Source: Peribolospora baueri
Lineage: Eukaryota
Direction: 5' to 3'
Assembly: GCA_029717555.1 (NCBI GenBank)
Contig: JAMDHS010000031.1
Location: 62,001-126,000 of the forward strand
DNA length: 64,000 nucleotides
Each line of letters starts with the position of its first letter. Position 1 is the first letter of the stretch. A program made the position numbers and the translations under genes. Positions 1 to 17,938 of this stretch are shown here, piece after piece. Below the pieces are notes generated by a model that searched no databases, was not told the origin of the DNA, and saw only the letters and a list, made by a program, of their open reading frames with translations.

Positions 1-268
1 TGGCCTTGGAGCTCGTCCGCTGGCGAGTGGTCCGTGACCAGGAGAAGGGATTATGAGCGCGTCGGACGACGTTCAGATAATGTACACGGTGCACGTTGCG
101 CACTCGGGACGACCAAGTTGCCCAAAGCAAAAAGCTGTGAACATGTGATCACGGATGGGAGGCAGAATAAGAGACAGAGAACGATTCTATCCAAGCTAGT
201 TCCATGTCCTTTTTTTTTTCCTTTCCATGCTCTCATGGTTCCGTCCGTTCGTCCGTTCGAGTCGCCCC

Positions 269-2210
269 TTAGAGCTTGCTCTTGCCGGCCGGAAGCCCAT
301 CTCCTCCAGCAGCGACAGGCCACTTCCCTGGCAGCCCGTCCCTCTTCCTCGCGTCCTCCACCTCCTGAACGATCTGGTCAGAAATGAACAGATCGAGCCC
401 GAGCTCGTCCATAGGTACGGTGGCAAACTTCGCAAGTTCGGCATTGGTCAGGCGGGACGGCGTGACGGTGGGAGAGGGGTGCGGCCGACGGAGGTAGAGC
501 TCGTCGATGAGGAAGTTGCCACTGAGGAGGGGGAGAACGGAAGAGATGAGAGAAACGGAAAGAGATTCATGTTCAGTCGACGAAATTCGCAAGCGGTGGC
601 CAAAACCCGCGCGTTCACGACGACGACGACGGCGGCGGTGCGACTGACCTGAACGTCTTCGCGTCCTCCTTGAAGATGCGCACCGCCGCTTCGGCCATGA
701 TCTCCGGCGCGCGGTGCTTTTCCGGCTTTCCGGAAGGGTCGACCAGGAGCATGGCCGACGTGCCAACGGTCGTGTAAGGCCACAGACCTGTCCGCGCGAT
801 GCGATGCGAGGGAGAAAAAAAAAAAAAAAAAAAAAAAAACGAAGGACGGATGAGCGCAAAGCCTGACTGGTGACCATCACTAACCGGCATGCTGCATTTC
901 GTTCAACGAGCGTCCGCAGCATGGACGCTCACAGTTCGCGGCGATCTCCCCACTCGTCTCCCCAGCGACGCCGAGCATGGCGAGGCTCATTGCGTACTTT
1001 GCCATCGCATACCCGGTGCAACCGGAGAAGTGCCTCTGGACGACATTGGATTGGAGTGGAGGGGAGAGAGTGAGGATGTGAGGGTTGCGTCCGGCTTCGG
1101 CCGAGGCTAGTAGGTGTGGGAGGGCGTGATGGGTGAGCATGTAGGTGCCTCGGGCGTTGATAGAGTGCATGAGGTCGAACTGAGGGACAAACAAATGAGG
1201 AGGGGTGGGGAGATGCCTTCAGTCCGCGGCGTCATGCTAATCGGCGACGATGAGCGCGTGCGTGTAAACGTGAACTTACCGACTTCATCGGCAGGGTCTC
1301 AGCTGGCTGGAGGTTAATAGCCGAGGCCTGCAGGAAGGAAGAACGGTGGAAATCTGGGTCAGTCAAACGAAGCGCCACCCCGCCCCCGCTTCTCCTCTCC
1401 ACCCCAGCCGATGCGCGCGCACACACACGTTGTTGATCAATATATCGAGCCCGCCGAAGCGCTCTACGGTCTTGGCGATAGCTTCTTTGACGGCCTCTTC
1501 CGAGCGCACGTCGACTTGCAGAGCGAGCGCCTTTCCACCCGCGCGCTCGATCTCTGCGGCGGCGGTGTGGATCGTGCCGGGAAGCTGAGAGAAGTCGGAA
1601 ACGGAAGACGGTAGGAAGGGAGATGTGACAGAGGTGGCGAACAGGGCGCGTGAGTAGGAGATCCGAGTCGGACAGACTCACTGGACCGACAGCTTAGTCG
1701 GTACTCGTCCTCCAGTGCCCCCTCCCCTTATCTCCGTTCGTCATGCTCACCTTGGGATGCGGCTCAGCGCTGTCCTCGACAAAAATGGGGGCCGGAGGGG
1801 AATATGCAAAGGATGGAAAGATGAGCAGCGAGGGGCGAGTAGGCTTCGATCCACCTGTCGGACTCATTCATCATTCGGTCGAGCCGTGGCCGACGGCGTC
1901 GGCCCCGGCCATCAACCTCTCTCCCACGCAGCATCCGACCCGTTCGCCCGCCCAACATGCAGCACGCACGCCCTCTCCCTCTCTCTCCTCCACGCCGCCG
2001 CCATTGTTCTGACCGACACGGGGAAAACACAAACTCGACTCACGTCTTGGCAGCGACGACCACGTTGGCGCCCTCCCTGGCGAGGCCCAGCCCGATCGCC
2101 AGGCCTATACCTCTGGAGGCGCCAGAGATGAAAGCGGTCCTGCCTTTCAGGGACGCCGATGCACTTGCCGAGGCGGCAGAGGCGGCGTGGCGGATAGGAG
2201 AGGCGAGCAT
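269..2210 (-). CDS. Short-chain dehydrogenase/reductase, HSDL2-like, with C-terminal PTS1 (SKL)
   Basis: Spliced ORF MLASPIRHAAS...AFISGASRGIG...VAAKT|AEPHPK|LPGTIHTAAAEIERAGGKAL...LINN|ASAI...YAMAK (YxxxK)...NCLWPYT...GKSKL*. Includes a 19-nt microexon at 1751-1769. All junctions are GT-AG and in frame. Confidence 0.9.
815..839. repeat. Poly(A) run of 25 nt (poly-T on the coding strand, inside an SDR intron)
   Basis: Seen directly in the sequence. Confidence 0.95.
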
Positions 2211-3245
2211 GATGAGAGGGGGGGGGTGGAAGGTAAGAGAGAGGCCTCGGAAGAGTTGTCCGAGAGGTCAACGAACAACGGCGATCGTGTCCGGCAAGTC
2301 GTTCTTGTACTCACGCGGGACCTGATGCGCTCTCGCCCGTGATACCACTTCCCTTCCTTCTCCCTTGCATGCTAGACCACCCCCAACCCTCTCAGGCGTT
2401 CTCTCTCCGATTCGGGAGCGCTCCACCCGTCCTCCTCCCCCACACTCCCATCATCCCCCACAGCCCCATCTCTCAGCTTCGTGAAAGAAGTCTCGCAAGT
2501 CGGGCAATCGGAGCCGCCTCGGTCCGGCCCGACGAAGAAGCCGGTATTCCGAGCCACGCGATCGCGGGCCAACCAAAGAAGCGGTCTCTCCCGTTCCTCT
2601 CCTCACATCCCTGGCTCCTCCCGTTCTCCTCTTTACCGATAAATACGGCACTCGTGCTCTCAGCGCAGTGCAACTGGCCCTGCTTGCGGTGTTTGGCGCA
2701 ATGGTAGACGGGTTGCATGCGACTATGCAGCGGCTGTGGGCACTTACGGAAACGACGCAAGAGAACAGAAGCGGGCGGGGAAGGGCAAATAAGGAAGCCT
2801 GGAAGAGGGGATTACACTAGTGGGAGGAGAGCGCTTGATGGAAGATGTCATCTCCTGCTGCGACCGAGGCGGAGGGAGGGCGGGAAGGAGCGAGGCAGAA
2901 GGGCAGGCGGGCGGGGCGAGGAGGCAAGCAGGCGAGGAAGAGGAGGGCGGGGGGAAGGCAAAGCAAAGTCTGACAAGGGCTGGACGATATGCTTTGCGGA
3001 AGGTGGCGCGAAACCCGTGACGAAGAGACGATTAGGGAGCTATGATAAAGAAAAGAGAAGGAAGAGGAGAGGAGAAAAGAGGAGAAAAGAGGATAGGAGA
3101 GAACAGGGAGAACATTTTGTGTCCCCTGCCAGCCTTGACGAACGACGACCAAACGACCGACGACGGTGGCGATCTACCATGCCATACCACATCACTTCAG
3201 GTTGGGTCACACCGCGCCCCATGATGTCGCATCCTGCGGTCTGGC

Positions 3246-5129
3246 TCAAAGCGCTCCGGCGACGACGCTGACAAGGAGGGCGGCGCCGAGTGGGACGATC
3301 TGCATGCTGACTTTGGCGTTGCCGGTGGCACCGTTGGATGCTCGGTTGGAGGAGGTCGAGCCGGAGCCAGAGCCGGAGCGTTCTGGGCCGCCCGAAGAGG
3401 AAGGCGAGGCGGCGGAGGAAGAGGTGGGCGCGGCGGCGGTGGAGGAGGCGTGTGGCGTTGTCGTGGCCGTGGCGACGTATCTGAGTGTCGGGGGAGAAAG
3501 GGCTGTGAGTGAGAAAGGAAGACGGTCATCTCCATCTTCCCAGCTTCCACCCGTCCTCCACACTCACGCGACGCTCATACTGCTGACCACCTGGTCCGCC
3601 AGCGTAACGTTGCCGACCGCCTGAGGCGGCGGCACGTCGACCCATCCACACGTGCCGAGCTGGGTGAAGTAGTAGTAGTTGTCTTCGAGAGCGCCGCCGC
3701 CGGCGCAGGTGGAATTCTCCGAGTTATACCAGCAGTTTTCGAACTGCATACCATAGGTGTTGTTGTAGTCCCAGATGTGCTGCAGAGGGAACGGAAAAAG
3801 GTGAGCGTGGAGGAGAGGTGGAAAGACAGAACGGCGTAGTAGGACGACGACGAGACGGGCGCTCACGATACCGGTATTGGTGAAGGTGTAATTCTCGCTG
3901 AAGGGGATGACCGTCGGCACCGAGTCTTCGTTGGCGACGACGCGCTGTCCGGACTCGCTGATATGGGGAAGAAGAAAGAAACGACGGAGAGCAAGGAAGG
4001 AAGCGGGGAGGGTGAAAAGATATGATATGAGACAGAGGATGGATGACTAGATGGATGCATGAACTGCCGCTCACCCCTCGAAGAGCTTGTTGTAGGCGCT
4101 CGCAGCCGCTGGATTGAACACTCGGGGACTGCGAGGGGGGCACAGCGAAGCGGTCGATGAGCGTATGTGGAGGATGACAAATGAAGAGCACGATCGCTGC
4201 CGCACTCACGCTCCCTGATTATGGCTATAGTGCACCAAGCCCCTGTAGCCGAGATCCAAGGCTGCAATCTGGGCAACGGCGCCTCCGAAAGCATGTCCGG
4301 TGACAGAGAACTTGTGTCCCGTGGATACGACAGCGGCTTTGGCGTCCGCCCAGTCGTTTGTCGCGTTGCGGGCTTCTAGGTACATCTGGAGGGCGACTGA
4401 GTGGGCGGTGCAGCTGCCGCAGTTGCCAATGTTTAGGGGTGCGACTGGGGGAAGAGGGGTGGTGGTGAGCGAGGGAGAGAAGACAGCGATGGAAGGGAAA
4501 GAGAAAGGGGATGCTCACGGGAAGCCGGGGTGTGGTCGCTGACATGTTAAGCCGAGGGAGACGAGGCGACCATGGGAGTGGGTCAGTTGAGAAGAGAGGC
4601 GATGAAAGAAAAGGGAAGGGAGGGGGACTCGACTCGATTTGACTCACAAGTTCTCCCACCCGTACATGCCCTTGAACACGATTACGACCTTGTCCATGGT
4701 CGGCACAATGACTTGATAGCCCTCGAGTCCGGAAGGAGTGGAGAAGTCGCCTATGGGCGTCCAGTTGCCGGCGCCGGCGAAGGCGGTTTGGGGACAAAGA
4801 GTGTTATAGTCTCCGTAGGCGGCCATGGAGAGCCAGCAGTGGAAACGGGCGTGGTACTGGGGATGGGCGGAGGAGACGAAAGGTTCGAGATGAGCTGAGT
4901 TGCGCTCTTCCCTGTGCTCCTCGTAGTTGGACGATACGGATCGGAGCGCTGCTCTCACCAGCTGATCCGGGTCATTCTGCCACCAAGGCACCGTGCTCGG
5001 GTCTACAGGTGCGGGGGCCTGACGGGGAGAGAGAGCATGAGCGTGTGACCGTGGGTCATGACCGGCAGAGGCAGCTGTGGGGGCCGCAAGGATGAGTGCG
5101 AGAGAAGAGAGGGTGGTGGATATGCGCAT
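3246..5129 (-). CDS. Secreted, probably GPI-anchored class-3 lipase-like protein, predicted catalytically inactive
   Basis: Signal peptide MRISTTLSSLALILAAP. Lipase-3 landmarks in order: LSMAAY, VVIVFKGM, CTAH, SVTGHAFGGAVAQIAALDL, GAPRVFN, RVVANEDSVP, C..SEN.TC. Ser/Thr/Gly-rich stalk and hydrophobic tail IVPLGAALLVSVVAGAL*. The exons join in frame. Confidence 0.8.
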
Positions 5130-6704
5130 GGTGGACGGGGGTGCGGGATGGAGGAGAGGAGGATGATAGAGATGCGGATGGAGAAGGCGATGGAGGAGGG
5201 AAGAAAACGTAGCGGATGATCTGGCGCCGTCGCCGTCGCCGTCGTTGTCGTTGTCGTCGTCGCAGCCTGTCCCATAAATGAGGATGAAGAGAAGGAGAGA
5301 AGGAAACTGGTGGACCGGCGGTGAGCGGCTGATTAGCGCTGACGGAGACGCCGCCGGCGAGCGTGGAGACGGAACATGTCAAGTACGGATGCAGCTCGAT
5401 CCATGGATCCGTGCTCGAGCAATGCTGCTATCGTCACAGTGCATCCTCACCGAACTCACCTGTTCACCTCGGCTCGTCCATCTCGACTTCTACCCTCTCA
5501 TCCATCTGACCTCGACAGGCGGCCACCTTGCCCTCCTCGTTCCACAAGGGCCGCCGGCACGCACGTGGCTGGCTGGCTGGCGCCGGCAATGGTCGCGTGA
5601 GGACCAGAGACGCGCCTACAGGACACGTACCGCGTCCTCGCAAGCCATGCCTAACTCCCCCCTTCTCTTCCCACCGTGCCTTGCCTCCCTCCCCATTCCT
5701 ACCTTCCTTGCGCCCTCGTCGGCTGGCCTACGCTCAAGCGGGCGACACGACGCGATGAAATCGAGCGGACGGTCCAACAGGATCGGCGCGGCTTGGCGCT
5801 GCGGCTGCAGATCGACGCCAGCCTTAGATAAGCGGGTCCCTCGTCGGAATGTCTTTCCATTGCTGCGAATATCGCTCAACATGGCCAAGCGGAGGAAGGA
5901 GCGCCACGGCTGGACGGAGCGGGAGCGCCAATCAGGCAAAGGCACGAGGACACCGCGGCAGCTTGAATATAAACGGACTTGCTCCGACTCTCGAGTCGAG
6001 CAACTTGCTAACCGCGCGTATGAACGTGCATGCCACACACGGCCACAATTCGCAGACCAGCCGGACGTGGTGCCCTCCCTTCTTCCACCCATAACCCGCT
6101 AGATGTCCATGTCCGCGTTTCAACAACGATCCTTACCAGTTCAAGATTTTGCCGCCGCCGTCTTCTTCATTTTCTTGCCTTGCCAACTCTAGCGCAGGAA
6201 GCCCCCCAGGCCGACTCGATCCGGACGTTGAGCGACTTGACCCATACGTGTGGCTTCTCTACTGATGACAGCCTCTCTCCAGGGATGAACTAGAGCGTCA
6301 TTTTTGTAACCTCTCAACGATGGTTCTCGGGAACGCGTGCGGAGGGCAGAGGAAAGAAGTCAGAGTCGGAGATGGCGCCCCAGAGATCCCGTCACTCGAA
6401 CGCTAACACGCCGTCGATAGCAATGGTCCAGTCCAGCAAACGCAAACGATGATAGAGGAAAGGTACAAACGATGCACAGTCCATGCTGGCGAATACTTAA
6501 AGCGACACACCAGGCGGGCGAGGTGTTGGCAAGGTTATGTGGAAGGCGGTTGAAGGAATGGTGCCCACGGGCCTCGCTTGTGGGGGGTGGCCGCAGCAAC
6601 CGGCGCGGTGGTTTCTCCGCTGACGTCGTTCCGTCCCTCGATCACTCTCGGCGCGGGGGCCCAAAGGTGCGAACGCCATCAACGTCGCCCCTCGCTGGTT
6701 GACC

Positions 6705-8388
6705 ATGTCGAGCACGCTCCACGATTACGTCCAAGATCCCCATCCGCCCGACCGTCGTCTGGGCTCCACTAGCACGAACACGCCCCCCAGCGCCATGGAC
6801 CCGTCTTCCGATCCCGAGTTCTACCGCCACCGAGACGAGGAGGATAGGAGGAGGTTGAGGATGAGAGAGCAAATGATACGGCTCCAGGTTCTCACCCCCG
6901 TCAGCGTGCTCGTCGCTCTCGGCGCCAACCTCATCTGTGCCGTCCTCGTCAAGCCGAGCATGGGTGAGTGGAGGGACCGGCTGGTGCACCATCGAGGATC
7001 TCCATGCTCACCCCGCCTCCTTCCTTTCCCTTTACCCTTCTTCTCCAGGCGACATATCTCGAAGATATCCGACGCTAATGACGCCCAAGACCGGCCTCAT
7101 CCTCATCTACTGGGCCGTCTTGTACGTCCTCGAGATCGGCTTCTGCCTTCTCTTGGTCATCGCCCGGAGGGAGGAGACCAAGGTGGGCGGCGAGACAGCG
7201 AACGAGCGAGCGGCGTCCGGCGTCCGGCGTCCGGCGTCCGGCGCGGTCTGAAGCTATCCATGATGCCTCCACTCATCTTTTCTCCGCATTTTTTTTTCAT
7301 TCCCGTTTTCTCTCTCTCCGTCTTTCCACCTCTAGGCGGCAATCGTCAAAGCCGTCGGGCTGCGCTTCGCTCTCGCCCAATGGGTCATGGCCGCGTGGGC
7401 GGTGTTCTGGGTAGGCATCGACACATCACCGGGGCTATGGAGGTGAAATGCGCTGACTGACGGACGATCCGCCGGTCGTGCATGCCTCTCTCCTTTCTCT
7501 TCGCCGCCACTCACAGACGCTCGAGTTTTTCAAAACGTCTGCGGTGTTCCTCCTGATCAACCTGGTTATCTTTATCACCATCTACCTCGGCTTGACGGTG
7601 TGGTACCCTCCGAGCGCTCGTAGGCCGCTCGACTGGCTCTTCATCCACGTACCCATGAAGTGAGTCAGTCGTCTCGCTCCTCATCGTCATTGGCCGGAGA
7701 AACGGAAGTGAGGGAATCTAGTCTGACACGATATTGTCCTGCACCCTGGTACGCTCGCTCGCAGGATGTATCTTGTCATCCTCCTCGCTGTTCAGTTTTG
7801 GCACAACGGACAAATTGCACTCGGCTGGGTCGCCAAGGACGAGCGGAGGTGAGTGGGTTTTGTCTATATTTATATCCGAACTTGCGGTGCGGGAATGGAG
7901 AGCGACGCCATATCCGTCCTCAGACGTTCCTTCTTCCTTCCCACCCCCTCTTCCTCCGATGTCTATCACATCCCCCGACGTCACTCTTCTATCTGCCGCC
8001 TTCTCCTCTCGATCGCCACCGCAGCTGGGCACGCTATACCTGGCCGACGTTTGGCATTCTTCTCGGCGTTGCCATTCTCTCCTCCCTCGTCGTTCTCTTC
8101 ACCTTAGACGCCGTCTGGACCCTGTCGGTTGTCTACCTCTATGCCGCTCTCCTCGCAAGGGGCGACAAGCCGGCGCCCGTGTTTGCCGCCATCATCCTTG
8201 GTCTCGTCCTGACCCCCGTGTGCTGGTTGGCCGGCATGGGGTGGAAGAGACTGAAGAAGAGGAGGGAGGGGAGGGTCGCCTTGCCTGTGGATGATGAAGC
8301 GGAGGAGGAGGCGACAGCGTCGGCGGCGGCGAGGGAGGAGCAGAACCATCACAGGCGGGCGCAGAGGTTTGCAGACGATCGCGACTGA
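6705..8388 (+). CDS. Multi-pass fungal membrane protein, DUF1774-like
   Basis: Spliced ORF with about 7-8 hydrophobic segments (QVLTPVSVLVAL, YPTLMTP..LILIYWAVLYVLEIGFC, VGLRFALAQW, PLDWLFIHVPMK...). The family assignment is from memory. Confidence 0.65.
7211..7243. repeat. (CGGCGTC) x ~4.5 tandem repeat in an intron
   Basis: Seen directly in the sequence. Confidence 0.85.
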
Positions 8389-9020
8389 CCGACCGACCGA
8401 TCGCCGAGACGGCGTGGCGCTTCGCGAGACATCCGACTCGGAAACTTGGGACTTGGGGGCCAGGCCAGGCCAGGCGAGGCGGGCAATGATAAGGATGCCC
8501 CGGAGCGCCGCTCTTGCCGAGGCCCAAGAGGCGAGGGGCAACGCCGCCCTGCCGTGCCGTGTAAGACAGAGAGCGAGCTGAGTGAAGGAGGCTTCCTGTA
8601 TATGTATGTGTGTATGTATGTATGTGTGTATGTCCATCTGTCCGTCTTCCGGTCCGTCTATCCAACGCTTTTTTTCTTGTTCTTCCCTTTCGCCCGATCA
8701 TCTGGTCTCACTGGAGCCGCCAGGGAACGAAAGCGCACGAGAAGAAAAAGAGTCCATTGGTGTCGGCGTCCGTCAGAGCGAGTCCCTCGTGGGACGGTCG
8801 ACGGTACAGTATCATAGTGTACGTACAGGTAAGGGACGGGACGAGACGGGATGGGACGGAACAGAACAAAACGGAACGGAACGGGAGGGGACGGGAGGCG
8901 AGGGGCTAGAGATAAAGGGAGGAAGAAGAATGGATAGGGAGAGACGTGAATCGTGAAGGGCGAGGTGAAGAGATGGGCTGGGAGAGGTCGTGTCGCGATG
9001 GGGAGGGAGGATCGAGCCAT

Positions 9021-9766
9021 TTAGTTGCTGGAGTGGGGGAGGGGAGAAGCGAGAAGCAGGGGAGGAGGGTTAGGGTCAGATTCGAGGAAGAGCGGACGAG
9101 GGGACCATCGACGAAAGCGATAACTCACAGGAGGCTGAGGGTGACGTCTCCGTGGGCCTGAGAAGGAGGAGAGGGAGAGGGGCGCGGCGAAAACAGAAAC
9201 GGAAACGAAACGACGGTCGGTTCGGTCAGGTCAGCCCCGGCTGGCCAGCCTGGCTTCGTTCTCTCGAGCGCGCTCAACGTCTCTTTGCCGTACCTTGATT
9301 CGGAGTTCGAGTTCTGAAGAGGGAGGAGGGAAAGGAAAGAAGGATGCGCCCCGATGAATGGGTGAGCGAGGAGAAGCGGATTTGCGGAAGACAGACGAAC
9401 GAGTGGATGATAAGTGCGGCTCACCGATGTCGAGGTTGACGCTGGACAGGGAAAGGGGGAGTGAGCAAAAACAGAGAGAAGGAAAATAAAACAGCACGTT
9501 CAGCCACCAGCCATCCCCACCGTTGACGGTCGCGGCACTGACTCGAGACGCAAGCTGAGCGTGTCCCTCTTGTTATCGCTACTACTCTTTTGATGGAGCT
9601 CGATCTTCTCTTCAATAGACTGCGCGACGGGTTTGATGTATGGCTGCTGCTGCTGCTGCTGGTTTGACTGAGCGACCTGCTTGTTCGCTGTGTCATCCTG
9701 GTTCAGCTGTTGGTGCACTGGGTTCTGCGTCTGCGTGCGCTCGGCGGTGGCGGCGAGGTTGGACAT
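9021..9766 (-). CDS. Small Gln-rich protein (~98 aa) ending DTLSLRLDVNLDIELELRIKAHGDVTLSLL(N); paralogue A
   Basis: Exons 9766-9543, 9441-9425 (17 nt), 9313-9294 (20 nt), 9157-9129 (29 nt), 9027-9021 (7 nt); total 297 nt, all GT-AG. If the last intron is retained, the protein stops at 9125. Confidence 0.8.
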
Positions 9767-10221
9767 GGTTGCGAGCGGACGGGCGGTAGAGTGAAGAAGG
9801 CGAAGGCGAGCGGGTTGGCAGACAGCGGGCAGTTGCGGTGATCGTAAATACAGTTGAAGGGTGCAGTGCAGGTTGGAAAACGAGGAAGACCGTCTTCTTT
9901 GTCCCTCCTTTGGCTTTTGTGGATCGCCCTCCTCCTTCTATCGGTCGGAGTCGTTGTGGCCGGCGTCATAGAGCCGTCTAATGGAGCCGGCGGTCAGCAC
10001 CACGGTCGAAGGGCTCAGGGGGGGCGAGTGTCTGACGACATGGCGCATCTCGCCCGGCCGCTGCTGACGGCATTGTGCCATCTCCCCATTCCATCTCTTG
10101 TGCGGCCTCGACGGACGCGTCGGAACGATGGCGGGCTTTCACCGCCCGTCGCGGGCGATAGTTCGAACGGACGGTAAACCAAACTGGCCATGCTGAGCAG
10201 GGCGGAGAATCGGCATCGCTA

Positions 10222-10376
10222 TTAATAGTTAATGAACGGGGGCCGTCGGATATTAATGGTTAATGAACGGGGGCCGTCGGGTGTTAATGGTTAATGAACG
10301 GGGGCCGTCGGCTGTTAATGGTTAATGAACGGGGGGCCGTCGGCTGTTAATGGTTAATGAACGGGGGCCGTCGGCT
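10222..10376. repeat. Tandem array of five ~31-bp units, consensus TTAATGGTTAATGAACGGGGGCCGTCGGCTG
   Basis: Units start at 10222, 10253, 10284, 10315 and 10347. They are near-identical, with no unique spacers. Confidence 0.95.
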
Positions 10377-10377
10377 C

Positions 10378-10385
10378 TGACGTCA
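10378..10385. promoter_or_regulatory. CRE/ATF-type palindrome TGACGTCA
   Basis: Perfect consensus 1 nt after the array, within the divergent intergenic region. Function is inferred. Confidence 0.45.
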
Positions 10386-10626
10386 TCGTCTAACCCTTAT
10401 CGCTCATCGCGTCTCGTACTGCTCACCATCAGCGGAGAATAGGACGGAGGAGAGAGAGGGAGAGAGAGCAAGAGAGAGAGGAGAAAGTGCGTGACAGACG
10501 ATACGAACGAACGACAGTGGCCGACCTACCTTACGCTCCCATGACGCTCACCCTCATCTCACCCGCTATTCCGGCCGATGGACAGATACACCCACCTAGT
10601 GACGCAAAGCGGCCGTGTCCATCTCT

Positions 10627-10656
10627 TCGCCTCGCCTCGCCTCGCCTCGCCTCGCC
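10627..10656. repeat. (TCGCC)6 microsatellite
   Basis: Seen directly in the sequence. Confidence 0.9.
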
Positions 10657-10842
10657 TTGTTGCCACGACCAGGTTGGTGGCAGTGTGGTCGGCGACGACG
10701 GCGCCTTGCCACCACTTAAGATCCCAATCCGACCGGACGACCAAGCACACGACGTGCGCCACTTCCACTCATTCCTCCACCACCTCGTCCTTCCTTTTCC
10801 CATCCAGACCAGCCAGCCAACGGAGCCAGCCAACCGCCTGCC

Positions 10843-11373
10843 ATGTCCGAAAACCAGAACTGGAACAGTCCCGGCTCTCCCTTCGAGGATGAGCATTATG
10901 CGGATACCAGCCAGTATAGCCAGGAGGATGAGCAGCAAACCGAGCAAGAGTCTCATCAGCAGTCGTTGCCGCGACAGCCCTCCCAACCTACCCCGAAGCA
11001 GCAGCGCCAAGCGCCCACGCAAGAAGAAAAGCTTAAGGGCGGCCCGGACCTCAAGGCCGCTGGTGGTGGCACCGATGCTGCTGGCCAGGTCGTGTCTGGC
11101 GCCGCCAATACGGCCGGCAAGACGGTAGACACAGTGGGAAAGACGGCCACTGGCGTGGTCGGAAACGTGGCCAAGAGCGATGAGGGTGGGAGCGGAAACG
11201 ACAAACCGATGAGTCTCAAGCTGACATTGGATCTCGATGTCGAGGTGAGCGGCACGACGTCCGTGCTCGTTCAAACGCACTGCTCATGCTCACCACGCCC
11301 AATTGTCCGGCACTCATCCCAGTTGACCCTCCGCGCCACCATCCACGGAGACGTGACCCTGAGCCTCTTGTGA
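10843..11373 (+). CDS. Small hydrophilic (Gln-rich, LEA-like) protein ending MSLKLTLDLDVELTLRATIHGDVTLSLL; paralogue B
   Basis: Exon 10843-11244, intron 11245-11322, exon 11323-11373. A further intron (11370-11504) and 7-nt last exon (11505-11511) are possible. Confidence 0.8.
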   Translation: MSENQNWNSPGSPFEDEHYADTSQYSQEDEQQTEQESHQQSLPRQPSQPTPKQQRQAPTQEEKLKGGPDLKAAGGGTDAAGQVVSGAANTAGKTVDTVGKTATGVVGNVAKSDEGGSGNDKPMSLKLTLDLDVEVSGTTSVLVQTHCSCSPRPIVRHSSQLTLRATIHGDVTLSLL

Positions 11374-12916
11374 GTCTTCTCTTTCTGTTGTCCCCCTCTC
11401 TTCCTTGTCATCGTCTGTTTTAGGGGGCAAGGCCGACGCACTACGGCTGCTTCGCACGACCGACGGCCGGATCCACCTTCTTCCCGCTCCCGTCGTCGAC
11501 ACAGCGTGTAGCGCCGCGGCGTCTTCCCTCCATCAGTCCGTCTGTGTGTGTTTGCGTGCGTGCATATCGCCGTCAAACACGTTCAGCACGGTTGCTTTCC
11601 CCCTCCTCCTCTCCCCTTCTCCTGTCTGCCTGCGTCCCCCAAACCCTCGCCGGGTGGATTAGGATGAGCTGGCTGAAGTCACGAACTGGTCATCGCTCCA
11701 TCCCCCTTCCTTCCCTTCCCTTTCTTGCGTTTTCGTGCATTCCATCATCCAACAGGGAGGGCTGATTTCGTACCGCGTCCCTCGACTCCCTTCTACCCAT
11801 GTCCTCCACCGCGTTGTCCGTTCGGCGTCGCGTCGTCGGCAGTGCTTGAGCTCCGCAGTGCCACTATCCGCCCCGCCATGGTATACGACGCGACAGCGAC
11901 GACGACGGCGACAATGACGTTCGACCTTTCCACCCCTTTTCATTCCTTCAACCAGTCCTTCCCCCTTTTCGATGTACGCACCAGCCATCCTTCTCTACGG
12001 ACATTCAAGCTTCCTTCTCTCGTTCCTTCACCGCCTCTCCCCATTCCGTTTTACTCCATCTGATTCTGGCCCCTACTCGCTGTACACCTCCCCATTCTGC
12101 CTCTCCGTTCCTATCAAGCGATGAGGCCCTAGAGCACTGTATGTACTGTAATCGTGGCGCCGTGGAGCGCGGTGAGACGCCGAGGCGGACTGCAGTTCGT
12201 TCGTTTTCGCTTTCTTTCCCCTCTCTCGTCCTTCGCTACGGCATCTCCACCTGGCCCAGAACGAGACGAGCGCGAACGGAAAGAATACGAAGCGAGCGGG
12301 AGCAGAGCGCAGAGAAAAGCTCGGAGCTCGTTCGTCTCCGCTCGCGAATCGTCGAAGAAGGGCCGAGCTAAAAAGTCGCCTTGATGGTTTCCCCTAGCGC
12401 CTGGTCGAGCCCGTCTTATGCGCTCTTCTCTGCATCTCTGTCTAGTTGGGAGCGGGTACTGCCAGATAAGGCGGTGATGAATTCCATCTCCCGCGCCATT
12501 CCCTTCCCCCTATGCGGCCCCTATGCGGCAAGCTCGCCTGAACCTCTTCCCAGGCTTGGCCGCGGCCTCTCCATTTTATTGCCACGTGTGGAGAGCTCCC
12601 TCACAGCCGTCTTTTCGCCCCAACAAGAAACCGCTCTACCGTTGGAGCTGATTCCTTCTCGGCCAGTTCTCGACTCACTCCGCTTCTAATCGCCCTACCA
12701 GCCGTCCTTCCCTTCCCGTCTCGTGCATGCTCCCAGCTCGTTGATTTTCTTCCAGCGCCTTTTGGCATGGTTGAAGGATGTCTCTGCCCACGGCCGGCGT
12801 ACGTCCGAAGTTACAGGTTTAATTCTAAATAAATTATCTTATTCAAACTTTTTAAACAATAAGCTTAGTGTGCGAGAGTGACGCAGGAGAAACGGACGGC
12901 TGCGAGGCGTCCTATC

Positions 12917-15682
12917 TTACGGACCCCCTGCCAGCGTCCTCTCCGCCTCTTCCACCACGGCTGCCCAGGCTTTGTGCACGTGCTCCTCCCTCGTCCAGGG
13001 GCTCCCGACGACGAGGCGCACGCAGAAGACCTCGCCGGGGAGCATGGTCTGCGTGAGGGCGAGGTCGGAGCGCGAGGACAGAGCGGCGTAGAAGGATATG
13101 TTGAGCGCGTTCGCCTCCTCCTTCTCTTCCACGCCGTCACCTTCCTCGCCGCGCGCGCGGGGCGCGCGCGGTCTCAGGCGGAACACCACGAGGCTCCACC
13201 TCGGCTCGGCGCACAGCTCGAAACGCTCGTCGCTCTCGACGAGCTCTCTGAAGACTTGCGCGCAACGCATGCCCAAGCGGAGGTGTGCGCGCAGGCCGCT
13301 GAGTCCGTGGGAACGGAGGACGAACCAGACTTTGATTGAGCGGAAGCGGCGGCCGAGGGTTAGGGACCAGTTCCGGTAGTCCGTCACTTGGCCTGTGGAG
13401 GGGTGAAAAGGGATAAGGGAAGGAGGGGAGCGACGAGAAGAATGGAAAGCGATGTGAGCGGTAACCGGGGAGGCAACGCGGCACAGAAGAGGGGTGGGGG
13501 GGGCGACCAAGATGACATGAGGAAGAAGGGTTCGACTCGACTCACCAGCGCCGCCGCGTTTCGTCTTAAGGTACTCCGGTGTGACCTCGAAAGCATCCTC
13601 AAGCCATGCCCGGTCGCGGATGAAGAGGCACGAAGCGTCAAAGTTGACGAGTCCCCATTTATGGAGCTGTGTGTACGGACGCGAGTCGAGAGCGAGGTGC
13701 GAAAGGACATCGATCAGAGAGGCTTGGTCGTCAACGCGAGCCGACGAGAGGAAGGGCAGGAAGAGCGCGAACGGAGGGAGAACTGACGTTGGTACAGTAG
13801 CTATACGCGCCACTGTTGATGGCATCAAGATAATTGGCTTTGCGCATCTCGGGAAGCGCGAGAGTGACGCCAGCGTAGGCGGCTGCGACACGAGATGTGA
13901 CGAGACGAGAAACGGTCGGGCCGAGTACGGTTCGGTCAGCAAGCCTTTGCGCAAATGAACACAGCAAAGCGGCGCGGGAGCAGACGCTCACCGTCAACGT
14001 GCAGGAACAACTTGGGGTGATCGCGGAGGACCTCGACGATCTCGTCCATGCGATCCACCGCGCCGGACGAGGTCGTACCGACGGTGGCGACTGGGCGACG
14101 ATAAGGGAAACACGATTAGCATGGCACTAGGGAGAGCTTTCTAGCGGACTCACTCAGAAAGAACGGAACCTTCCCCTCCGCCGCGTCCTCCTCAATTGCT
14201 TTCCGGAGCGTCTCCCCGCGCAGGGCAAAGTCGTCTTCCTTGGAGACTGGAAGGGCGCGGAAGGGAAGGCCAAGGATAAGACCCGCTTTGGCGCCGAGCG
14301 AGTGGGTCTGCAGCGCGGAGCGGAGATGCCATAAGGGAGATTGGAAGACCGTGCGAGATGTCGCGCGAGAAGTGGAAGATCAAACGGTGAGAGAGGGCCG
14401 AAAGGGAGCCTAGAAAGCGGCGCTCACTTGAGTGGTACCGTAAATGACCAGCCGACTAGTGATCCTGCTCCTCTGCTCCGCCGTCAATGCCCTAGCCAGG
14501 CTCCGACCCGCTCGTACGGCCGCACTAGGGCTCTCCGTGCCATTCGTCTGCGCCGCCGCTGCCGCCGGTGGCCCGCTAGGATGGGCCTGATCGGGATGCA
14601 CTCGAAGGAGATCGGCGGCAGAAGAGTCTTCTTCTGCAAAAATGAGCCGAATGGCCCTCTCCCTTGCTGCGATGGCAGCCACAAGGGCGACCTCGGAGGC
14701 GCCGCCTAGGATCGCACCTCCACCGACGCCAGTGGTCGATAGGAAGGCAGAGGAGAGGCCGAAGGCCCGCGCCAGTTGGTCCATGACTGCCGATAAGGAG
14801 GGAAGAGAAGGAACACGATAACGTTAACCAACGTCGCGCCTCGACGTACGAAGGAAGTGGAAGACACTAGCTCACCATGCTGTTCCAGCTCGGTCACAGA
14901 GGGCGAGCAAGACCACTGCGGAGCAGAGAGAACGTGATGAGTCCAGCCGAGCACATGCAAGGGTTGTGAGCCCAACGCGAAAGGTGCTCGCTCACGTTGA
15001 AGCCGGGATTGCTGACCGCCGCGGCCCACATGTCGCCGAGGATGCCCTCGAAGCTGGTGTTGGCCGGATAGTAGGCGAAGAAGGAGGGGTGCTGCCAATG
15101 GGTGATGCTAAGCGGAGTGGATGCGAGACAGGTAGTTCAGCCCCACACCACTGTCTCGACGGCACACACAGCATGAGCAAACCTCAGGGTCATGTCTCCT
15201 GGACTCACCCGGGCATGATAACATTTTCAAAGTCATCTTGTATCACCTCCCACGGCTCTGGCTCTTCGGGAAACGTCTCTGAGCGCACGGTCGGGCGAAG
15301 AGGTGAACGAGTGGGACCAATTCAACGAGCGCGCCAAGATGACCCCTTAACCGACCAGCGACCGGCCTACATACCGGGGAGCTGTTTGGTCAGAAAGCCC
15401 GGTTGGACCTGACTGACGACTGGCCGTTCCTGGAGGGCGTAATAATACTCACATATCCTGGAAAAAAAAAGCAGAAGTAGGGATAATTGCCAAAGAGAAA
15501 GACAGAAGCGTGGGTTAGGGCGCCCTGAGCACCGACACGGCCTGCTCACCTGTCCACGGCTGCGTACCCGGCTTTGCGAAAGCTACAGAAGAGCGTCGAT
15601 AAGGTCGGGGTCCGGCTCTTTCGGGCTAGGGGACGAGCCTGACCGGCCACACCGGCAGGCGGACGTACCCTTCGATATCCAT
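12917..15682 (-). CDS. PLP-dependent aromatic-L-amino-acid decarboxylase (group II)
   Basis: MDIEGFRKAGYAAVDRI..., IMPGITHWQHPSFFAYYP, ATVGTTSSGAVD, LHVDAAYAG, NLHKW (PLP lysine), TPEYLK, DYRNWSLTLGRRFRSIKVWFVLR. Confidence 0.95.
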
Positions 15683-16116
15683 CTTTATGTCTAAGGACGA
15701 GAATGCGATTCGATCTGGAACATGCGGGAACAAGACGAGCGACAACGGCGAGTTACGAAACGGGACGGTCGATGGGAGTTGGAAAAGGTCACAGACAGGC
15801 TAATCTTGGACGAGGATCAGACGAGAAGATCGCCGGTCCGAGGAATCGGCGCTATTCGGCCGTCTCGACTCGTGATCGGTAATCAGACCCTCTCCGGTCG
15901 TCGACGTGCGATTCCATCCCATTCGACAGCGAGTTTGTAAAGAAACACGAAGAGAGAGAAAGAGAGTTTCAGGTACGATCCGACACTAGTATTCATAAAC
16001 TAAAGGCGAGAGATCGACCGAGTCCGACGAAGTGAGCCAGGCTGAAGGGGGATGGTGATGGGGATAGAGAGCGAGGGTGCTGTGCGACGTCTCCGAACGT
16101 GAGAGGATCATGCGCG

Positions 16117-17938
16117 TCAAAGGGCCCGCGTCGTGTTCGTGCACTCTCCATTCCCGTACCAGCCCATCCGGATGCCGACGTAAGGTCTGCGACAAAAGCA
16201 GGCAAAGGCAAAAGAGACGCGGTGGCCCCGCGCAGCGTGAGCACAAGTATCAGACAGAAATGGCTGCCAGCGCTCCCTCTCTCCACCTCACGGCCAGCAG
16301 GATGTCGCGCAAACTCACCCGTCATGCATGGCCCAACCCAGGTTATCCGCAACCGAGTCTGCACAGTTCTGGTTCTCCTGCCCTGGACAGTACTCTACGG
16401 ACGTCAAGTTCGGAGAGGGGATCCAGAGCTCGCCTGTTGAAGGAGGGTGCGATAGTGTGACGGAAAATTGAGAGATGTAGACGGGTAAGTCGGTGGGGGT
16501 CCGGTCAGCAGGGAAGATGGTGGCGAAGGTCGACGTGAGTGAAGGAGGAAGGAAATACTCACCTGCTGTGTGCCAGTAGCCCGTGTAAATGGGAGGTAGG
16601 TGGGGCACGATGTCTTCAAGGGGGAAGAAGACAACGTCATCACAATCGAGTTTGAAGTCGTCCATGGGCAACTGCACCTGAAAGCTCTCTCACCGTTATA
16701 GTTCGTGAGATGGTGGATGATACCAAGGTAGCCGGTTTTGTATCGAGCGTCCACGAGATCAGCAAAGTCCTTGTTTCCGACGCGGGGCAAGCCGACTGTG
16801 AAGCGAGGGGGAGCGAGGATAGAAGGGGGGGTGATTGTGATCAGAGAGAAATGGTCAGGTGGGACACGAGCCAAAAGCGACGGAGGCGCGGAGAATGAGA
16901 TGTCTCACATAGGATCGTCTTGACATTAACTTTCCTCCCCACTCGCTCCTCGGTGAGATGGGCGTTAAGAGCGAGGCCGTCCATCAAAGCGATCGCCGCG
17001 CCCAGGCTATGGCCCGTGACCAACACCTCGTCCACCCCGTCACCCTTCGTCACCGCCGCGGTGATGGTGTCTGTGATATTGGCGATCGTAGTGTTCCACG
17101 TTCGCTGGAAGCCTTGGTGCACGGAAGGTTCAATGATGTGGCCGTCTGCGTCTGACGTCTGTGACAGCAGATGCCGAGCAGCGACGTTGTCAGGAAGTGG
17201 ACTCGACGCCGTCCTCGACGAGGGCCGAACGGAAGCCGAGCTGTTGTACGTCACGTTCAAGGCGGACGCGAGCAGAGGGTCGAGTTTGACGGGGAAAAGG
17301 TCAAGGTCGTCGAGGATGGACAGGATCGAGTTGGTGTTGGTACCTGGGAGAGGGGGAACATGAGCCGAATCAGACAGCGAGTATGGAAGCGAGGCTCGTC
17401 GAGGCGATGGTCCGACGCGACGCCGGTAGGACTCGCCTTGATGAGCGACGACAACGCGACGAGCGCGGGATTGCAGGGCGATGTAGTAGTAAGGCGTAGC
17501 ATCTCCATCTCCGCCCGCCTCCAGCACTTGGACTGGACCGAGCGCTTCACACGCCGCTGCTTGGGAACGAAAGGAAAAGGGACGACTCAATATCGATGGC
17601 TGGGCGCAACGCCGGACGACTTGTCCTGCATACTCACTTCCACAGCTCCACCGGCCTCTTTCCACTACGTCCGCGCAATAACTCGCGCTCGCAAAGTTGG
17701 CCGCCGTGCGAAGGTCGTCCAGCTGGCTCGTGCCGTTGTACGGCACGGCGGGGCGTCTGTTGATGAGTGTCGGGTCGGTGGGCTGGGGGTCGGAGATGGT
17801 CGTGGTCGTGGTGGTGGCCGTGGAGGTCGCGGCGGGCAATGGCAAAGCGTCGGGGGTGGGTACAAAAGGGATCTGCCTGCCAGCCGCGCAGAGGGCGAGA
17901 GAGATGAGGGCGAAAGCGCCAGAGAAAGGCGAACGCAT
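16117..17938 (-). CDS. Secreted class-3 lipase with intact catalytic triad
   Basis: Signal peptide MRSPFSGAFALISLAL; VVVAHQGTN, VHQGF, VTGHSLGAAIA, GLPRVGN, DIVPHLPP, MHDGPY. Last exon ends ...TRAL* at 16117. Confidence 0.9.

Follow-up and report, generated by a model that had tools for sequence, protein, structure and literature searches.

We examined a 64,000-nucleotide stretch of the Peribolospora baueri genome (assembly GCA_029717555.1, contig JAMDHS010000031.1, positions 62,001–126,000 of the forward strand; hereafter the window, whose own coordinates are used throughout). In it, two small genes, here called A and B, lie head to head, and their predicted products end in a closely similar 28-residue tail. 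Sequence comparison places both proteins in what appears to be an old, undescribed, fungus-wide family of small disordered proteins that is defined by this C-terminal tail. How the tail might work is a more tentative matter, for which we favour co-assembly of the two proteins.

A head-to-head pair of small genes

The two genes were first proposed, together with their tail sequences, in a reading made from the DNA letters without database searches (the sequence-only reading), which interpreted them as a candidate two-component assembly system. Both gene models, with their start codons 1,076 bp apart, are indeed present in the sequence, and the tails as written out in that reading are exact. Here the exons of each gene were joined by coordinate in a script after both strands had been read, with splicing judged from sequence logic.

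Gene A, on the minus strand, is predicted to encode a 97-aa product in four exons of 224, 17, 20 and 33 nt, separated by introns of 101, 111 and 136 nt, all three of which are bounded by GT..AG and contain a branch-like CTSAC word. Exon 1 (9543–9766, with the ATG at 9766) would supply a hydrophilic, glutamine (Q)-rich head and the first five residues of the tail. Exons 2 (9425–9441) and 3 (9294–9313) are micro-exons of 17 and 20 nt within the tail, the former with GT..AG introns carrying the word CTCAC on either side, and exon 4 (9125–9157) would supply the final 10 tail residues and the TGA stop (9127–9125). The micro-exons thus fall inside a motif that is unbroken in all copies fetched elsewhere, by a search that was limited to unbroken copies.

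Gene B, on the plus strand, is predicted to encode a 150-aa product in two exons. The first (10843–11244, beginning with the ATG at 10843) encodes an acidic, Q-rich head, a glycine (G)-rich stretch and the first 12 tail residues. A 78-nt GT..AG intron (11245–11322) follows, in frame and without a stop, and the second exon (11323–11373) encodes the final 16 tail residues and a TGA stop, with a GTGAGT donor-like word from 11370.

The two tails are identical at 18 of 28 positions and the same over their last nine residues, and the heads are unrelated (BLASTP E = 2.3). The earlier view that A and B are paralogous through the tail only is upheld. The heads also differ in composition: that of A is 30% Gln plus Asn and contains no Gly (0%), and B is 12% Gly. 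Both are hydrophilic, with a mean Kyte–Doolittle value of −1.26 and −1.71 over the first 25 residues of the two window products, and neither has a stretch resembling a signal peptide or a transmembrane segment. Together with the lack of cysteine in either product, these hydrophilic N-termini do not fit a hydrophobin or other secreted amphiphile. The label 'LEA-like' (late embryogenesis abundant), which the sequence-only reading had attached to a stretch of B, found no support in Pfam, where neither A nor B has an LEA-type or a DUF3659 match at E ≤ 10.

The tail itself has the periodicity of a beta strand, as the alternating pattern described earlier implied: its hydrophobic moment peaks at 180 degrees (0.92 in A, 0.75 in B), a value reached by 0 of 1000 shuffles. 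One face is made up entirely of Leu, Ile and Val, and the polar face reads, by inspection, + + − 0 − − 0 + +. An AlphaFold2 monomer model, based on a 71-sequence alignment, has a mean predicted local distance difference test score (pLDDT) of 58, rises to about 74 over the tail blocks and contains no secondary structure; the tail therefore does not fold alone in that model. Two other identities, a mitochondrial beta-signal and a single leucine-rich repeat, were dropped by eye, as the spacing of the tail fits neither. A regular-expression scan of all six frames found no third copy of the tail in the 64-kb window.

A family found across the fungi

Word-index searches with exon 1 of gene B and with its read-through tail region returned no match, and relatives surfaced only in an exhaustive phmmer search, in which the read-through form of B (the letter-for-letter translation of the window) was compared with 1.84 billion representative sequences at E ≤ 0.001. 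Six proteins matched, four of which carry the tail. We rejected P0005, a bacterial type IX secretion system (T9SS) repeat protein that matches by composition, and P0006, a protein of 7,691 aa that matches only the head rich in Gln and Glu. A profile of three of the true hits was then used to score 8000 candidates, 552 of which matched at E ≤ 1. The tail is present in 120 of 120 proteins among the matches listed, in 38 distinct 28-residue versions, and lies 0–2 residues from the end of the protein in 75 of them; more than two residues follow it in the other 45. Many of the long models among these 45 look like read-through of a terminal intron or fusion to the next gene. One Aspergillus terricola model (P0101, 449 aa) contains two tails, at residues 162–189 and 409–436, and probably represents two tandem family genes merged by annotation.

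The family members come from Ascomycota (Trichoderma, Fusarium, Podospora, Gaeumannomyces, Sporothrix and Aspergillus), Basidiomycota (Marasmius, Lentinula, Pleurotus and Agaricus) and Mucoromycota (Umbelopsis and Dichotomocladium). The names given by the sources are all 'hypothetical' or 'uncharacterized', and none of the named proteins among the 552 has a functional name, which bears out the remark in the sequence-only reading that similar C-termini occur in uncharacterised fungal proteins. No relative was found among prokaryotes, represented by one genome for each of 185,579 species.

That reading had also allowed that the motif might belong to a characterised domain with another role, and the searches point the other way. 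No Pfam model covers the tail in the family members tested, DUF3659 being matched only in fused gene models and outside the tail. A profile search of the PDB with the tail family gave only sub-threshold matches to unrelated low-complexity regions; the ESM Atlas returned only unnamed Ascomycota clusters; and a full-text literature search for tail strings and eight locus tags or accessions found nothing published on members of the family.

For the window proteins themselves we used a 33-position hidden Markov model (HMM) of the tail built from 71 proteins of other fungi only. Against it, the spliced product of A reaches 48.6 bits and that of B 41.7 bits; with a model drawn solely from other fungi, the match is not due to chance. 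A full-length family HMM scores gene B at 87.8 bits, so that B can be regarded as a complete member, with the G-rich stretch followed by the tail. Gene A shares with the family only the tail plus a few residues before it.

Constraint on the tail

Fourteen columns of the tail do not vary at all in the alignment of 71 proteins, and four more are at least 90% conserved. A scan of metagenome contigs gave 356 relatives, from which 79 loci were kept, forming 66 groups at 97% identity. Their 95 tail copies comprise 79 distinct DNA versions and only 39 distinct peptides. Among the DNA versions the mean synonymous difference (pS) is 0.77, which is saturated, and the mean non-synonymous difference (pN) is 0.16; constraint thus appears to act on the peptide, and on its aliphatic and charged faces alike. 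The tail has a C-terminal position, and the constraint on it at the protein level is strong. A peptide of 28 residues that differs so little between Mucoromycota and Ascomycota must have some exact task.

The window tails are more diverged than most, with A keeping 13 and B 10 of the 14 otherwise invariant columns. They also share two unusual states: Leu at tail position 13, which none of the 39 distinct peptides from other loci has, and Val at position 23, which only one of the 39 has. Shared states are seen in other pairs too: those at loci L038 and L041 have Glu24 and Ser26 in common.

A splice donor at the last leucine codon

Both genes end in Leu-Leu and then a TGA stop, which shares bases with a GTGAGT donor located in the last Leu codon. 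A phase-2 intron donor in this codon is seen across the family (window 9125–9130 and 11368–11375; loci L001–L079). In gene A, a terminal intron of 101 nt may run from the GTGAGT donor at 9128, past CTGAC and CTAAC words, to a CAG acceptor, followed by a 7-nt last exon (9021–9128 in all, minus strand). It would add one Asn and end at 9021, the position at which the sequence-only reading had the pair begin. In gene B, candidate acceptors would give either a 29-residue extension ending at 11511, where that reading had the pair end, or an altered last residue; neither option has backing from family members elsewhere.

After the last Leu, the 95 tail copies continue in three ways: 47 with an immediate stop (mostly within GTAAGT or GTGAGT), 26 with a donor but no stop, and 22 with a run-on of 1–4 codons. 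The last of these classes consists mostly of transcript-like contigs of about 1 kb, as expected of spliced message. Such transcript-like contigs end with the same one-residue extension as modelled for gene A, and the donor lies at the same codon in the family genes. Roughly half of the copies use the TAA or TGA within the donor itself as their stop codon, so that spliced and unspliced messages would encode nearly the same end.

Neighbouring pairs in other fungi

When all six frames were scanned with the tail HMM, a head-to-head partner, on the opposite strand upstream and with the tails 1.3–3.7 kb apart, was found in nine of the 66 metagenome groups (L003, L005, L007, L012/13, L020, L023, L029, L031 and L071), and a further copy in tandem on the same strand in six (L037, L038, L041/42, L045/49, L057 and L059/60). 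Four groups have no partner despite full flanking sequence (L035, L039/40/47, L052 and L058), and in the remaining 47, mostly contigs of about 1 kb, the flanks are too short to tell. Both flanks reach at least 3.7 kb in 14 groups, of which six are head-to-head, four are tandem and four have a lone copy. With a second family gene within 3.7 kb in 10 of these 14 well-flanked groups, the linkage is conserved; the sequence-only reading, which had described such genes as often clustered and had named absence of linkage elsewhere as a point that would count against it, is supported here, head-to-head arrangements included.

The head-to-head partner combines an acidic head with a basic run and a long run rich in Gln and Met, ahead of a tail that forms a separate subtype, and the same G-rich and Q-rich head types stand in tandem at L038 and L041. 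Thus it appears from the predicted proteins that a G-rich member usually lies beside a Q-rich one elsewhere, as in the window. Three tandem family genes occur at L045 (10184–14074) and L049, where the third and a possible fourth tail are strongly diverged (25.8 and 18.2 bits).

The intergenic region and the surrounding window

The 1,076 bp between the two start codons (9767–10842) are presumed to act as a bidirectional promoter. In the middle they contain a tandem repeat (10218–10376) of a 31-bp unit in 5.1 copies with 94% matches and two TTAATG words per unit; this repeat was not found in the related loci. Directly after the array is a perfect palindrome, TGACGTCA (10378–10385), a word resembling the cAMP response element (CRE). 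TGAYRTCA occurs nine times in 10 intergenic regions of the family against 1.4 times in shuffles, a comparison of related loci in which some regions probably include partner coding sequence, and we regard its possible enrichment as a promoter signal as a lead. A GA-rich run (10449–10484) and a (TCGCC)6 run (10627–10657) lie upstream of the gene B start codon.

The window was scanned for domains in 122 of its 133 open reading frames (ORFs) of at least 150 aa, leaving out 11 overlapping ORFs within the 48.8–53.3 kb frame and the B frame itself. No ORF of this length in positions 1–12000 has a Pfam match. Recognisable genes begin at 12.9 kb, with a pyridoxal phosphate (PLP) decarboxylase, a class-3 lipase, a subtilase, a mitochondrial carrier and an ammonium transporter; further along are an Ish1-repeat gene (36.1–37.6 kb), a septin, a LIM protein and a TFIIIC subunit. 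The genes flanking the pair differ from those at the other loci. Among contigs from two DNA sequencing runs, those of one run match the left part identically, and a second organism matches only in short pieces of low complexity.

DUF3659 genes as neighbours

At other loci, a DUF3659 gene lies downstream of the G-rich gene and on the same strand in all five of the head-to-head loci tested that have downstream flank, and in three of the five (L005, L012 and L071) a gene with five DUF3659 repeats plus DUF6987 follows as well. The gene directly after the G-rich gene has a single DUF3659 repeat (L005, L012, L020, L031 and L071; at L005 the two DUF3659 genes occupy 11981–13000 and 14651–17014). The small neighbour has a conserved, strand-like stretch of its own, ending IPTVF near the C-terminus, which is present in 10 locus groups.

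A precomputed PF12396 (DUF3659) annotation stands beside the tail in 4 of the 120 models among the matches listed. P0065 and P0105, the two of these that were scanned, both match DUF3659 in a region other than the tail, and some database models with this annotation appear to fuse two genes. A preprint reports that the Aspergillus oryzae DUF3659 protein LdrD is associated with lipid droplets and that a paralogue of LdrD did not localise to them (bioRxiv 10.1101/2022.11.24.517872). Since the window contains neither a DUF3659 gene nor the C-terminal stretch of the DUF3659 neighbour, a link to lipid droplets is a lead for the family and not for this locus.

What the tail may do

Our best reading, to which we assign a probability of roughly 0.4, is that A and B co-assemble through the tail. 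The tail would be unfolded alone and would fold by pairing with other tails, of its own kind and of the neighbour's. Its Leu/Ile/Val face would pack on another sheet or a hydrophobic surface, and the charge pattern of the other face would, by reasoning and not by computation, allow staggered antiparallel strands to pair ionically and a Lys to pair with a Glu across the His-Gly-Asp turn. If the two proteins are made together from the shared intergenic region, the outcome would be an A/B co-assembly that displays two kinds of disordered head. In the earlier two-component proposal, the tail paralogy, the existence of a family and the clustering have stood; hetero-oligomers, a barrel, filament or amyloid state, co-expression and a role in stress or dormancy are conjecture, the LEA-like label lacks Pfam support, and the monomer model contains no secondary structure. 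A broader version can be imagined, although we think it improbable as a whole: an ancient fungal two-gene module in which co-made Q-rich and G-rich proteins would lock into a mixed beta-sheet polymer via an ionically self-complementary tail, DUF3659 proteins with strand-like tails joining in some lineages, to coat lipid droplets or gel the cytoplasm in stressed or resting cells.

Several observations weigh against the co-assembly reading. The loci were retrieved via the conserved tail itself, which inflates its apparent conservation, and copies split by introns, as in window gene A, would be missed. Pairing is not obligatory, given the 4 of 14 well-flanked groups without a partner within 3.7 kb. 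Tail identity within pairs averages 21.2 of 28 positions, only a slight excess over 19.7 between pairs (11 distinct pair states), and the states common to both members of a pair could reflect co-adaptation or local gene conversion alike. Compared by profile, the head of window gene A shows no likeness to the Q-rich heads of the partners, and the junction before its tail resembles the G-rich type, so that the window pair may not be orthologous to the pairs elsewhere. With both tails unusually diverged, the window pair could be a second, derived pair.

The tail might instead act on a surface or on a third protein. The strict 180-degree amphipathicity with its all-aliphatic face is what one might expect of an amphipathic strand lying on a lipid-droplet monolayer or membrane and tethering the disordered heads, with tail–tail assembly secondary or absent. 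The recurrence of DUF3659 genes after the G-rich gene, the neighbour's C-terminal stretch in its 10 locus groups, the occasional PF12396 annotation beside the tail and the reported presence of LdrD on droplets all lean in this direction. However, the window lacks both the DUF3659 gene and that stretch, the LdrD paralogue was off droplets in the same preprint, and the polar face is conserved as much as the hydrophobic one, which a plain lipid anchor would not need. Known droplet anchors are moreover helices or hairpins rather than strands, both as generally understood and according to the introduction of that preprint (bioRxiv 10.1101/2022.11.24.517872), and we consider an interface anchor unlikely. 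We are somewhat more doubtful still of a docking role, in which the tail would bind a third, conserved and folded partner by adding a strand to it, or would direct sorting or export, with A and B as alternative cargos or adaptors that are neighbours through duplication and shared regulation. Such a role would suit a short terminal peptide with both faces near-invariant over very different heads in three phyla, the unstructured monomer model and the lone copies in 4 of the 14 well-flanked groups, and the Leu-x-Leu-x-Leu spacing is loosely like that of leucine-rich export signals. No candidate partner was seen, though, neighbours beyond the family and DUF3659 genes vary between loci, and 28 constrained residues are long for a linear docking motif.

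Two further explanations fare worse than these and than co-assembly. A gene-model artefact, in which either gene or both would not be expressed in the modelled form and the tail of A would be a coincidence of pseudo-exons or part of a decaying copy, is very unlikely. Exons of 17 and 20 nt are unusual, the tails depart from the invariant columns (13 of 14 kept in A, 10 of 14 in B), and the window's own proteins did not surface in word-index database searches; against this, three GT..AG introns restore in frame a tail scoring 48.6 bits, both reading frames are open from the ATG, and the match of gene B to the family extends along the whole protein. The idea that the pair is a fungal amyloid signalling motif of the NOD-like receptor (NLR) type, in which a receptor templates a cell-death effector via a common short motif, is largely refuted, and we give it hardly any weight. 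It has in its favour a short motif common to adjacent genes and a His-Gly turn, following the general logic of the systems reviewed in PMC5485727 and PMC9815663. Yet none of the 122 window ORFs scanned has a NACHT, NB-ARC, HeLo or HET domain, both partners are small disordered proteins, and the motif is C-terminal in 95 of 95 copies examined and never at the N-terminus of a long ORF. A HET gene lies near only one related locus (L059, about 5 kb away), and motifs of this kind are usually much less conserved than the family is.

New here are the definition of the family, the recurring arrangement of its members as neighbouring pairs and the genomic link to DUF3659 genes, by which a set of 'hypothetical proteins' becomes a two-protein system that can be tested in tractable model fungi. 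As a natural self-assembling strand module, should it prove to be one, the tail would be relevant to functional amyloids, to the stress biology of disordered proteins and to peptide materials, and if the polymer reading were true it would constitute a new class of eukaryotic functional beta-assembly. Should the tail prove to be only a sorting tag, it would still rank among the most conserved linear motifs in fungi for which no reader is known.

Comparison with known systems

The closest counterparts of the window genes are fungal 'hypothetical proteins' such as Podospora anserina PODANS_3_3230, Trichoderma reesei TRIREDRAFT_72581 and Gaeumannomyces GGTG_05992, which have the same tail in C-terminal position, preceded as in gene B by a G-rich stretch, and share the donor site at the last Leu codon. 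Compared with proteins of this type, the window tails are more diverged and are split by introns (three in A, one in B), and A has no G-rich stretch. Among described systems, we rate this arrangement, in which disordered proteins would be joined by a strand-forming module, as having no relative in sequence. LEA-like hydrophilins and DUF3659 proteins such as LdrD also have hydrophilic, disordered, G-rich heads, and DUF3659 genes are conserved neighbours in other fungi, but there is no LEA or DUF3659 match in Pfam for A, B or the family heads, and no DUF3659 gene in the window. The HET-s, PP and sigma amyloid signalling motifs are likewise short and common to adjacent genes, whereas the window pair has no NLR or HeLo partner and no Pfam match, and both carriers are small and disordered.

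The idea of co-assembly itself has its nearest models in curli and in ionic self-complementary peptides. Curli CsgA/CsgB is a bacterial functional amyloid of two secreted, repeat-built subunits encoded by neighbouring paralogues with a common strand-forming segment. A and B, in contrast, have no signal peptide and carry the motif once, at the C-terminus. EAK16 (from yeast zuotin) and RADA16 are ionic self-complementary, Ala-based repeat peptides, studied as isolated peptides, that self-assemble into sheet tapes and gels. With them the tail shares a strict hydrophobic/charged alternation and blocks of like charge able to pair between strands. Unlike them, the tail is part of natural proteins, a terminal module built on Leu and Ile in which the His-Gly-Asp turn is fixed, and its assembly, into amyloid or otherwise, is hypothetical.

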